Below the pieces are notes generated by a model. It ran no database searches, was not told where the DNA came from, and saw only the letters and a list, made by a program, of their open reading frames with translations. Shown in pieces: positions 3,758 through 7,995 of a DNA stretch of 64,000 nt. Source of the DNA: Patescibacteria group bacterium (GTDB lineage Bacteria > Patescibacteriota > Minisyncoccia > Phycocordibacterales > UBA9973); assembly GCA_028865035.1 (NCBI GenBank), contig JAGWLB010000004.1, positions 1,294 through 65,293 of the forward strand, written 5' to 3'. The translations under genes and the position numbers were made by a program. Position 1 is the first letter of the stretch; every line of letters begins with the position of its first letter.

Positions 3758-3943
3758 TTAATCAATAGCAATAAGATTGTGGTTTATTTAAAAGAACGAA
3801 TATTGTCGAATACTATCATAAAATAAATTTAAGTCAAATTAGTTAAAAATATATTTAAATTCTCACTCACCTCCCATATGTCTTAACTAATGCAGTATAC
3901 CCTGCCTTATTTCTTCTTATCAATTTAGTTATATTAAAATCAT

Positions 3944-4165
3944 ATGAAAAACACAAAATTTTTACATCCAAATACATTAAAGGAACATAGGTTAAAAGCA
4001 GGTCTTACACAAAGACAAGTATCCAGTTATATGGGATTTAATAGCGAAGATAGGATCAGTCGTTGGGAACAAGGACAAGCCTTCCCTAGTCTTCAGAATA
4101 CATTGAAATTAGCGAAGTTGTTTAATGTGCATCCTGGAGAATTGTATCCGGAGTTGAATATTTAA
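3944..4165 (+). CDS. XRE-family (Cro/C1-type) HTH transcriptional regulator
   Basis: LKEHRLKAGLTQRQVSSYMGFNSEDRISRWEQGQAFPSLQNTLKLAKLF is a typical HTH_XRE helix-turn-helix. Confidence 0.8.
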   Translation: MKNTKFLHPNTLKEHRLKAGLTQRQVSSYMGFNSEDRISRWEQGQAFPSLQNTLKLAKLFNVHPGELYPELNI

Positions 4166-4301
4166 GCCAGATAGTAAACTTGACTTTTACCTAATATTAA
4201 GTATAATGAAGCAAAACAAATACAGGTTGATTTTTGGAGCCATTCCTAAATAAATGGATTCAGTAATCAACCTATATTTTGAAACTTATAAACCTTAAAA
4301 A

Positions 4302-5502: not shown

Positions 5503-6366
5503 ATGTGGATACCAGATGAAATGAAAAAGTGTGTTGCCTTTCTTTGTATAAAAAACAAAGAGGGAGTAATAACACCTGGAGGAACTGGGTTTTTTATCTC
5601 TGTGGCATCTAAAACAAATTCTAATAGGATTTACACATACTTTGTAACCGCAAGGCATAATATTATTGCAATAGGACAAAAAGATTTTTGGCTTAGAATA
5701 AATAGTAAGGACGGAAAATTATTAGAATTACCTGGTAATAGTAATGTTAAGTGGTTCTATAACCCTAATCATGAACAAAACCCTGCCGATGTTGCTCTTA
5801 TGCGATTTCCTATCTTTGAGAATAAAATTGACGCACTAGCAGTTCCTCCACCTATGTATGAAAAGACTGAGGAGTTGATAAATAGTGGAGAGCTTGGAAT
5901 CGGAAACGAGGTTTTTATAACTGGTCTTTTTACTAGACTTTCAGGGAAGCAAGAAAATTTACCTATTATTAGAATGGGTAATATTGCTATGATTCCTAAT
6001 GAAAAGGTTCCTACTAAAGATTTTGGCAACATGGACGCTTATCTTATTGAAGCTCGTTCAATTGGAGGTGTTAGTGGTTCTCCAGTATTCTTTTGCAAGC
6101 CTCAACAAACCAATAAGGGATTTATACCTGGTGTTGAATTTTATTTAGGAGGTCTTATACATGGCCATTGGGACACACTAGAAGAAAATATAGACTCTTT
6201 TTTAGCAACTGAGGATGCAAAAGAGAGTAAGAATATAAATATGGGAATTGCGATTGTAACACCAATAGCAAAAATTATAGAGACATTAAATTGTGAAGAA
6301 CTAATGCAAGAGAGAGTAGAGAATGATAAACTAATGGAAAAGGGAAACACCCCCATTGCCGATTAG
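5503..6366 (+). CDS. cytoplasmic trypsin-like (chymotrypsin-fold) serine protease
   Basis: Catalytic triad context: TARHNI (His), NPADVALMRF (Asp), GGVSGSPVF (Ser in a GxSGxP motif). No signal peptide and no PDZ domain. Confidence 0.7.
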   Translation: MWIPDEMKKCVAFLCIKNKEGVITPGGTGFFISVASKTNSNRIYTYFVTARHNIIAIGQKDFWLRINSKDGKLLELPGNSNVKWFYNPNHEQNPADVALMRFPIFENKIDALAVPPPMYEKTEELINSGELGIGNEVFITGLFTRLSGKQENLPIIRMGNIAMIPNEKVPTKDFGNMDAYLIEARSIGGVSGSPVFFCKPQQTNKGFIPGVEFYLGGLIHGHWDTLEENIDSFLATEDAKESKNINMGIAIVTPIAKIIETLNCEELMQERVENDKLMEKGNTPIAD

Positions 6367-6481
6367 TTGTTAGTTATATAATTTCGCGTATGAATAAAAA
6401 ATAGTTTTTAATTGATTGTTAGATATACCATTGAGTAACCATTTGTGTAAATAATTCGAATTTAAGTGGTAAATATAAGTA

Positions 6482-7165
6482 TTAAGCTGCTTTAATAAGT
6501 TTATAGTTATCAATATTTTGATTAATCCTTATTGCATGCTCAATATAGTAATTTACATTTACCCTAAAATTATCCCATGTAACTGGGTAAATATACGAAT
6601 GATCATCACCAGTATGAATCACACCACATATTCCATTAGGGCATCCTATAGTTTTGGGTTGTATCCTGTTGAACATATTACCTCCTAGAATTTTAAATAA
6701 AGTATCTTGTTTCCATCTAGTATTATTACAATTAGTGCATCCTGATGGCTCAACAAAATATTCATAACTTCCATTTTCGTCTGGAATAACTACAGCCAAC
6801 ATGGCATTAGTTCTACTTTTCCTATCCCATCTTGTTTTTTCTCTTAAAGAATAAGCTATTTCCCAGGGTATCCATTGATCTGTCTCGGGCATATAATTAT
6901 CTTTCATATTTTTAGAAATTAAGACTATTGTAACAGAGCTATCATAAATTTTATCTCGTAAATTAGAAGCAATCGTATCGTCTTTAAATCCACTCATATC
7001 TTCTCCGTCATCTTCACCTTTATTTATGTGATCATTAGAATCTATAAGACCTTGAATAAAGTCAACATAGTGTCTAACTGTTGTGGGGTCGTTTTCTCCG
7101 TACCTAGGAATATGTAATACACTAGAATCGCTATATTTATAACTTACAAAAATTTTCCTGGCCAT
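6482..7165 (-). CDS. TIR-like domain protein, ThsB-like (DUF1863-type)
   Basis: N-terminal MARKIFVSYKYSD, then SSVTIVLISKNM and DQWIPWEIAYSL. These parallel the ThsB/TIR-like motifs (K/R)(I/V)F(I/F)S(Y/F)xxxD, VxxVLIxxxT and RWVxYEI. The start codon overlaps the upstream gene by 4 bp (ATGA). Confidence 0.65.
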   Translation of the reverse strand: MARKIFVSYKYSDSSVLHIPRYGENDPTTVRHYVDFIQGLIDSNDHINKGEDDGEDMSGFKDDTIASNLRDKIYDSSVTIVLISKNMKDNYMPETDQWIPWEIAYSLREKTRWDRKSRTNAMLAVVIPDENGSYEYFVEPSGCTNCNNTRWKQDTLFKILGGNMFNRIQPKTIGCPNGICGVIHTGDDHSYIYPVTWDNFRVNVNYYIEHAIRINQNIDNYKLIKAA

Positions 7166-7168
7166 AAT

Positions 7169-7645
7169 TTATATAAAAAAATAAATAATAATTAAAACTA
7201 TAATTAAAGAAAGATAAAAAAATGATATAGTATTTGCACAAAAAGTAGCGCAAAGATTATTCCCTATCTCATTTCTATAGGGTTTTGTATTCATTGAAAA
7301 ATCAATTTCCTTTCCTTCAAGTTTTCTTACATGATTATACAAACTACGGAACAATCTTTCTTCAAGTAGATAATATCCATCTAAAACCCAAAAAATAAAA
7401 ATCGGAAATAGAGCAAGCCAAATATACTTATGATTGGCATCTTTTGCAGACAAAGCAAAAATACCCGCAATAAGAGTAATAGTCCATCCTTTTAACAAGA
7501 AAGAATTAACTGCCATTCTTGTAATAATTATCTGTATAAAATCCAAATGTTTATGTTTATCTGATATATCTGTCATATTTTCATCATTTATTGCAAAAAA
7601 TAATAACAATTTAATTGTATGCCTATTTACATAGAAATCAAGCAC
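7169..7645 (-). CDS. small multi-pass membrane protein (about 3 TM). Candidate membrane effector coupled to the TIR-like gene.
   Basis: Hydrophobic helices WTITLIAGIFALSA, YIWLALFPIFIFWVLDGYYLL and ISFFYLSLIIVLIIIYFFI. Translationally coupled to 6482..7165. Confidence 0.55.
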   Translation of the reverse strand: MLDFYVNRHTIKLLLFFAINDENMTDISDKHKHLDFIQIIITRMAVNSFLLKGWTITLIAGIFALSAKDANHKYIWLALFPIFIFWVLDGYYLLEERLFRSLYNHVRKLEGKEIDFSMNTKPYRNEIGNNLCATFCANTISFFYLSLIIVLIIIYFFI

Positions 7646-7760
7646 ATAAATTAAATTAAAAGTTCGACTCCCTGTAGGGTTTAACTCAAATTGTGGGAAA
7701 TAGCAATTTCTATATCCTTTATTTTAAAAGGATATTTACTTACTTGGTAGATATACCATT

Positions 7761-7835
7761 GGGTGACCCTACAGGGAATCGAACCCTGATTACCGCCTTG
7801 AGAAGGCGATGTCCTAACCGTTAGACGATAGGGCC
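7761..7835 (-). tRNA. tRNA-Glu (anticodon CUC)
   Basis: Reverse complement is GGCCCTATCGTCTAACGGTTAGGACATCGCCTTCTCAAGGCGGTAATCAGGGTTCGATTCCCTGTAGGGTCACCCA. Cloverleaf with acceptor GGCCCTA/TAGGGTC, anticodon loop TTCTCAA and TTCGATT T-loop. Confidence 0.85.
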
Positions 7836-7840
7836 ATGCA

Positions 7841-7880
7841 GCGATGTCCGCTATATTCTAACTTGGTTAGACGATAGGGC
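7841..7880 (-). repeat. degenerate partial copy of the tRNA-Glu 5' region (gcgatgtcc...ttagacgatagggcc) directly upstream of the tRNA
   Basis: Identical 9-nt and 15-nt blocks shared with 7805-7835, with a diverged insert between them. Confidence 0.6.
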
Positions 7881-7995
7881 CATATGTACACGCAAGAAAA
7901 ATATAGCATTTTTATATGAAAAATCAAAAATAATTTATCATAAAAAAAACAGCCACACATAGTGTAGTGACTGGTTTTAAGATTATAAATAATTG

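Follow-up and report, generated by a model that had tools for sequence, protein, structure and literature searches.

The locus described here lies on the minus strand, at positions 6,482 to 7,645 of a 64,000-nucleotide stretch (hereafter the window) of contig JAGWLB010000004.1 from a Patescibacteria group bacterium (assembly GCA_028865035.1). It carries two adjacent open reading frames (ORFs), 6482..7165 (227 amino acids (aa), ATG start) and 7169..7645 (158 aa if a GTG start is used), as had been reported in a first-pass annotation generated by a model from the letters of the window. The two genes very probably constitute an anti-phage system of Thoeris type V, in which thsF, a gene for a small membrane protein, is followed by thsB, a gene for a TIR protein. 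The features of the pair are as follows.

7169..7576, minus strand: thsF, 135 aa, predicted type V Thoeris effector, a membrane protein with three helices (PADLOC PDC-M50A); stop codon at 7171..7169.
7166..7168, minus strand: intergenic spacer att, 3 nucleotides (nt), from the thsF stop to the thsB start; read directly from the sequence.
6482..7165, minus strand: thsB, 227 aa, ThsB-type TIR of the BdThsB1-like subfamily; predicted catalytic Glu E102 in QWIPWEI.
7614..7641, minus strand: sigma-70-like promoter match TTGATT-16-TACAAT, 38 nt 5' of the thsF ATG; consensus scan, weak evidence.

Gene boundaries were determined by direct reading and by comparison with homologous loci. The thsF stop codon (TAA, 7171..7169) is followed by att (7168..7166) and then by the thsB ATG at 7165; the genes are thus tightly linked with zero overlap, and the 4-bp ATGA overlap proposed in the first-pass annotation is refuted. 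The corresponding spacers in five homologous loci were 4, 4, 5, and 9 nt as called and, in the locus designated L090, ~5 nt if an in-frame ATG start (MARKIF) is assumed, and an overlap was seen in 0 of the 5. Because all 40 aligned thsF homologues begin within a few residues of the ATG at 7576 (MTDISDKHKHL...), the start of the gene was most likely this codon (135 aa), rather than the GTG at 7645. The earlier report of a 158-aa upstream protein was therefore correct as to the existence of the ORF, but that length is the maximal ORF only, and the homologues indicate 135 aa. The promoter-like site (7641-7614) falls within the supposed N-terminal extension of the 158-aa ORF, and it counts weakly since promoter-like sites were not enriched over shuffled sequences.

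Assignment to type V was based on the classification of Yirmiya et al. (bioRxiv December 2025, 10.64898/2025.12.03.692087), who expanded Thoeris to eleven types and defined type V as ThsB together with ThsF, the latter called a 'DUF2270' protein with three transmembrane (TM) helices. In that study the type V system of Bacillus thuringiensis DAR 81934 protected B. subtilis from phage, its ThsB synthesised the cyclic ADP-ribose isomer 3'cADPR upon infection, added 3'cADPR was toxic only where the system was present, and the Tad1 sponge relieved defence; in an AlphaFold 3 model, the ThsF forms a heptameric channel with basic pockets where protomers meet. Table S1 of the same study lists TIRs of cluster 2742576382 ('...DSSVTIVLISKNMKD...DQWIPWEISYSL...'), whose motif structure is nearly identical to that of the window ThsB, as 'DUF2270 - Type V'. 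The DAR 81934 ThsB sequence given in Table S1 retrieved a 100% identical protein (P0391), and the gene located 14 nt downstream of it (3773-4198 of locus L084) codes for a 141-aa protein that has no recorded Pfam match. This protein aligned with the window membrane protein at 45% identity over 132 residues (E 7e-41), matched the profile of the window protein's family with a probability of 100% in hhalign (E 4e-44), and matched the same four PDC-M50A models of PADLOC. Because it is homologous to the gene beside the validated DAR 81934 ThsB, the window membrane gene is assigned by sequence as thsF. At plasmid loci in Priestia and Klebsiella, a B. thuringiensis-type ThsB likewise adjoins a ThsF homologue of 135-136 aa that is annotated 'hypothetical protein'. 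Three properties of type V, namely effector homology to a validated ThsF, a small three-helix protein, and an adjacent, co-conserved TIR, were found in the window. The proposal that the upstream gene supplies the membrane effector of a Thoeris-type system is borne out by this homology and by the strong co-conservation of the pair. The description of the pair as a compact variant not characterised experimentally does not hold, since the homologous B. thuringiensis system has been shown to be anti-phage and 3'cADPR-responsive. The pair is already catalogued computationally in PADLOC and validated experimentally in a homologue, and is a further instance of type V Thoeris.

The architecture of ThsF was examined by hydropathy analysis and structure prediction, using the numbering of the 135-aa protein. 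Kyte-Doolittle hydrophobic segments were located at ~26-44, 50-71, and 112-135, and the AlphaFold2 model (mean predicted local distance difference test (pLDDT) 89.9) contained helices at 2-46, 49-85, and 115-134, in agreement with the hydropathy profile. The first of these comprises an amphipathic N-terminus leading into TM1, and the second comprises TM2 with a cytoplasmic extension. Both analyses thus agree with the arrangement proposed from the letters, an N-terminal helix, two closely spaced TM helices, and a C-terminal TM helix. Across 118 diverse family members, positions K7, R20, K29, R74, and R77 were 92-100% basic and D66 and E73 were conserved at 98-99%; the family-invariant residues R20, K29, D66, E73, and R77 are retained in the window protein. 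The family is represented by at least 1,482 close homologues that are 132-140 aa long, by 5,193 representative clusters at 50% identity (E <= 1e-3), and by at least 551 loci confirmed among species-representative genomes. ThsF also matched a phage protein family of unknown function (phrog_19896, E 2e-36), as did ThsB (phrog_13658, E 3e-37), and because both proteins match PHROG families the thsF-thsB system is, as judged from sequence, also carried by phages or prophages. In one homologue of 378 aa (P0260), a SLOG domain (LD_cluster2, E 2e-15) precedes a ThsF domain in the same chain, a fusion that fits ThsF as a signal-receiving effector module.

The first-pass annotation had viewed the locus as an uncharacterised, minimal TIR-2TM or SLATT-type variant of Thoeris distinct from all described types. 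In agreement with this view, the window ThsF had no match above threshold in Pfam, NCBIfam, or the PDB (an NCBIfam scan of five local proteins, too, returned zero matches), NCBI annotates it as a hypothetical protein, and PADLOC lists the effector only under PDC-M50, one of the PDC-x systems, which are unpublished computational candidates shipped with that program. The matches to PADLOC were nevertheless strong, with all four PDC-M50A models retrieving the protein (best PDLC04686, E 8.6e-50). No SLATT model matched the window ThsF or 14 relatives at E <= 10, or any of 41 alignment members at E <= 1, and the protein has three hydrophobic helices; the idea of a SLATT or 2TM effector is thus not supported. 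The same TIR cluster and effector combination is, moreover, tabulated as type V, and the full-length homology of the effector to the validated type V protein (45% identity, E 7e-41) already largely disposes of a distinct variant, which is considered extremely improbable.

The downstream protein was compared with profile and structure databases. It passed the threshold of Pfam PF08937 (ThsB_TIR / DUF1863; 29.7 bits, gathering score 21.2, residues 42-128), and the PADLOC ThsB model PDLC00428 covered it at full length (E 2e-79). A profile built from 40 ThsB homologues found one solved structure, 9vyl_A, over its full length (E 6e-93). The AlphaFold2 model of the window protein (pLDDT 79.8) was matched by Foldseek to the same entry, 9VYL ('Crystal structure of BdThsB1 with NAD'), with TM scores of 0.87/0.89 and 52% identity, and more weakly to ThsB-Tad3 and BcThsB structures (9b7d, 8btn). 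The prefix 'Bd' presumably denotes Bacillus dafuensis, as judged from the names 'BdThsB1' and '...synthase TIR1'; the two ThsBs of B. dafuensis were named TIR1 and TIR2 by Ofir et al. (preprint 10.1101/2021.01.06.425286), who reported that both make a cyclic ADP-ribose isomer that activates ThsA. Residue E102 (QWIPWEI) was invariant across 40 ThsB sequences and was paired in hhalign with E85, the catalytic residue of B. cereus ThsB (overall probability only 44%); an E85Q mutant of the latter abolishes signal production (Ofir et al., preprint 10.1101/2021.01.06.425286). The window ThsB is accordingly placed, from sequence and the predicted model, in the BdThsB1 subfamily of TIR-fold enzymes, and its predicted catalytic glutamate is intact. 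The motifs on which the protein had originally been recognised (MARKIFVSYKYSD, SSVTIVLISKNM, and DQWIPWEIAYSL) are all present in it, its identification as a ThsB/DUF1863-type TIR with a catalytic Glu is upheld, and a database hit, a fold, and a catalytic Glu, on which that identification had been made to depend, were each found. In the C-terminal half of the subfamily (~143-189), C143, C175, H184, and H189 do not vary, and C180 hardly does; this cluster could be a metal site, and its positions are only partly retained in BdThsB1.

Co-conservation of the pair was assessed in 80 reference-genome loci with a ThsF homologue, ranked by similarity to the window ThsF. A tightly linked ORF was found downstream of thsF in 69 and upstream in 59 of these loci; PF08937 was detected in 55/69 of the downstream and 16/59 of the upstream neighbours, and others carried TIR_2. 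By iterative search, a TIR gene directly adjoined thsF in at least 64 of the 80. The TIR subfamily of the window itself was found beside thsF in only three loci, and the poor co-conservation suggested by a search with the window TIR alone (3/80) was rejected as misleading, as the Pfam results showed that other ThsB/TIR subfamilies fill the position. Because at least 64 loci carry a TIR and only three share the window subfamily, the effector stays constant while the TIR subfamily is exchanged. Such exchange would be expected, since the TIR determines phage specificity in Thoeris (Ofir et al., preprint 10.1101/2021.01.06.425286). In the reverse direction, five of five close ThsB homologues sampled on long contigs had a ThsF homologue (E 1e-36 to 1e-50) located 4-9 nt upstream, usually in the vicinity of restriction-modification genes. 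The two families are thus, on sequence grounds, tightly linked across hundreds of genomes, and the check on the gene pair called for at the outset gave a positive result in both directions. As for the host range, 21 of the 80 loci, the list being ranked by similarity, were from Patescibacteria or the candidate phyla radiation (CPR) and four were archaeal; the statement that such systems are rarely reported in CPR genomes is not supported by this. In some Thoeris loci a single effector is accompanied by two or three TIR genes (L081, on a Priestia plasmid; L083, on a B. cereus plasmid; and L090), and in L083 the TIR genes lie beside a SIR2 family gene.

It was also considered whether the pair is a remnant left in a reduced genome, inactive or put to another use, with intact ORFs that are unexpressed or unused for defence. 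The promoter matches unenriched over shuffles and the lack of an obvious Shine-Dalgarno sequence before either start are in line with this explanation. Against it, both ORFs are full-length, E102 of ThsB and R20, K29, D66, E73, and R77 of ThsF are retained, and Patescibacteria relatives with 63-78% (ThsB) and 60-64% (ThsF) identity show the same arrangement; a remnant is therefore regarded as very improbable.

For a functional type V system, the following mechanism is proposed by analogy with the published relatives. ThsB would sense phage infection and convert NAD+ to a cyclic ADP-ribose isomer, most likely 3'cADPR, because the isomer that activates ThsA is the product of the type V TIR of B. 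thuringiensis and of the TIRs of B. dafuensis alike. The signal would bind a basic cytoplasmic pocket between the protomers of a ring-shaped ThsF homo-oligomer (K7, R20, K29, R74, and R77), ThsF would then compromise membrane integrity, and the cell would arrest or die before the phage cycle is completed (abortive infection). The fold, the predicted catalytic residue, the effector homology, and the linkage were established by homology and structure prediction; the signal, binding, and membrane steps are inferred from published work on relatives.

Several points weigh against assignment to type V or against parts of this mechanism. The window TIR and the TIR of the validated B. thuringiensis pair are of different subfamilies. 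The signal is not uniform within type V, since the 1NLA3E system gave no response to 3'cADPR (Yirmiya et al., 10.64898/2025.12.03.692087). The putative ThsF ring oligomer is suggested in the window protein by conserved basic positions, and these residues may owe part of their conservation to the positive-inside rule. The DUF2270 label itself was not reached, as the window ThsF scored 12.1 bits with PF10028 against a gathering score of 25, and no match of PF10028 to the validated B. thuringiensis ThsF was found with HMMER. Sub-threshold matches to PF10028 were present in 30 of 41 ThsF family members in a consistent register (best E 0.005). Because the validated protein fails it as well, the label is non-discriminating in practice for ThsF. 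Weak, full-length matches to PF24838 (8xMP) were obtained with the B. thuringiensis ThsF and with the ThsF of locus L002; all PF10028 and PF24838 scores remained below gathering (at most ~15-16 bits versus 25 and 30), and the two families are possible remote relatives of ThsF by sequence, not memberships. In a protein of 351 aa (P0312), a ThsF domain lies C-terminal of an 8xMP domain (PF24838, E 2e-27), and 8xMP may be a sister effector family, because the B. thuringiensis ThsF itself weakly matches it at full length.

A further point against the assignment is the caveat of Yirmiya et al. (10.64898/2025.12.03.692087) that the TIR of an operon yet to be verified could itself act as the NAD-depleting effector. 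The roles would then be reversed, with the TIR as the toxic NAD+-depleting component, as in the TIR effectors of CBASS, Pycsar, and prokaryotic Argonaute (pAgo) systems, and the membrane protein as sensor, anchor, or regulator; two of the 69 neighbours of ThsF homologues did match the CAP12/Pycsar effector TIR model. However, the B. thuringiensis TIR makes 3'cADPR, which when added harms only cells that have the system, the solved structure nearest to the window TIR, BdThsB1, is from a type I system whose two TIRs generate the ThsA-activating isomer, and the SLOG-ThsF fusion (P0260) has the architecture of a signal-receiving effector. Reversed roles are hence deemed very unlikely, and ThsB as the signal-producing enzyme with ThsF as its effector is preferred.

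Within type V, the window system was compared most directly with that of B. thuringiensis DAR 81934. The effectors belong to the same family (135 aa here versus 141 aa), match the same PADLOC models, and have three hydrophobic helices, and both systems are two-gene operons with a ThsB-type TIR among defence genes. The gene order differs, being thsF-thsB here and thsB-thsF in B. thuringiensis, and the 227-aa, BdThsB1-like TIR of the window contrasts with a 252-aa B. thuringiensis TIR that has an N-terminal extension and is recognised by PADLOC model PDLC00430; the host here is a Patescibacteria metagenome-assembled genome. The TIR itself is most like BdThsB1 (PDB 9VYL), to which it is 52% identical and whose fold it matches over the full length (TM 0.87); the catalytic motif WIPWE is common to both. 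The partner of BdThsB1 in the B. dafuensis type I system is a SIR2-SLOG ThsA NADase, whereas the window TIR is paired with the membrane protein ThsF, and SIR2 or SLOG matches (type I ThsA) were absent among the neighbours of the window thsB. With regard to PADLOC PDC-M50, a candidate without assigned mechanism, ThsF matched every PDC-M50A model, while the window TIR matched the PDC-M50B model weakly (E 0.0022) and fits the ThsB model far better, because it belongs to another ThsB subfamily. The literature on PDC-M50, 9VYL, and 8xMP yielded nothing relevant. A membrane effector that kills or arrests the cell in response to a TIR-made signal is also found in type II (TM-Macro) and type VII (SLATT) Thoeris; their signals differ, being histidine-ADP-ribose (His-ADPR) and canonical cADPR, respectively, and ThsF is much smaller than their effectors and without Macro and SLATT domains. 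A Pfam scan of the 135-aa window ThsF gave no match to a Macro domain, the criterion of type II.

The value of these results is mainly one of annotation, in that the names ThsF and type V Thoeris can now be given to the 135-aa 'hypothetical protein' and to the locus, respectively. The ThsF family is very large and is present on plasmids and in the phage protein family library. Given how often it occurs in Patescibacteria, reduced-genome episymbionts are also among the bearers of TIR-based signalling immunity. Type V Thoeris will go unnoticed in Pfam-based annotation pipelines, because the DUF2270 model fails to detect even the validated ThsF at threshold.

The surroundings of the pair were searched for tRNA genes, repeats, and defence genes, and the following additional features were identified.

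7760..7836, minus strand: tRNA-Glu(CTC), directly upstream of the cassette; possible insertion site; ARAGORN.
6398..6440: left copy of a 43-nt imperfect direct repeat, ~40 nt 3' of the thsB stop.
7726..7768: right copy of the 43-nt imperfect direct repeat, sharing ~9 nt with the 3' end of the tRNA-Glu gene.
7866..7883: perfect 18-nt copy of the 5' end of tRNA-Glu (partial tRNA duplication); repeat comparison.

The two copies of the 43-nt repeat (6398-6440 and 7726-7768) are identical at 33/43 positions with the exact core TAGATATACCATTG, and they bracket the thsF-thsB cassette exactly. Their ungapped score of 23 was reached in 0 of 2000 shuffles (mean 9.7, maximum 16). No integrase was found between the copies. 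No significant flanking direct repeats were found in five other loci, four of which have a tRNA within ~500 nt of the cassette, and because of this the 43-nt repeat is a local feature of the window locus. The position of the cassette after tRNA-Glu and between the repeats is consistent with acquisition by insertion. An unlikely extension of this idea is that the 1.3-kb thsF-thsB segment is a self-contained cassette placed at the tRNA-Glu 3' end by site-specific recombination acting in trans, which would make it a minimal mobile Thoeris unit in reduced CPR genomes, and/or that the BdThsB1-like/ThsF pair uses a signal other than 3'cADPR. The G+C content of the cassette was 0.29-0.30, versus 0.34-0.39 in the adjoining cell-wall genes, and G+C content was rejected as a marker of the cassette since other parts of the window are equally AT-rich.

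The 5' end of tRNA-Glu (7820-7837) is copied exactly over 18 nt at 7866-7883, 46 nt further on, and a second shared stretch, GGACATCGC, suggests a degraded copy of the 5' half of the tRNA. The exact duplicate and the accessory or defence-type neighbours agree with the accessory defence setting beside a tRNA with a partial duplication that had been described initially. A cassette within a few hundred bases of a tRNA was also observed in L002, L014, and L023 (also L017 and L051), the tRNAs being tRNA-Gln, tRNA-Ser, and tRNA-Ala, and flanking repeats at these loci did not reach significance. In several other loci, too, the cassette directly follows a tRNA. The neighbours of the window thsB are ThsF, a trypsin-like protein, hypothetical proteins, the tRNA, and a cell-wall gene (probably murF). 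The gene at 5503-6366 (plus strand, 287 aa), which is convergent with thsB and lies on the flank opposite the cell-wall genes, matched the PADLOC single-gene candidate PDC-S45 (E 2e-17) and phrog_7688 of unknown function (E 4e-14), with weak similarity to Trypsin_2 and LmuA; as judged from sequence, it may be a second defence gene of the islet.

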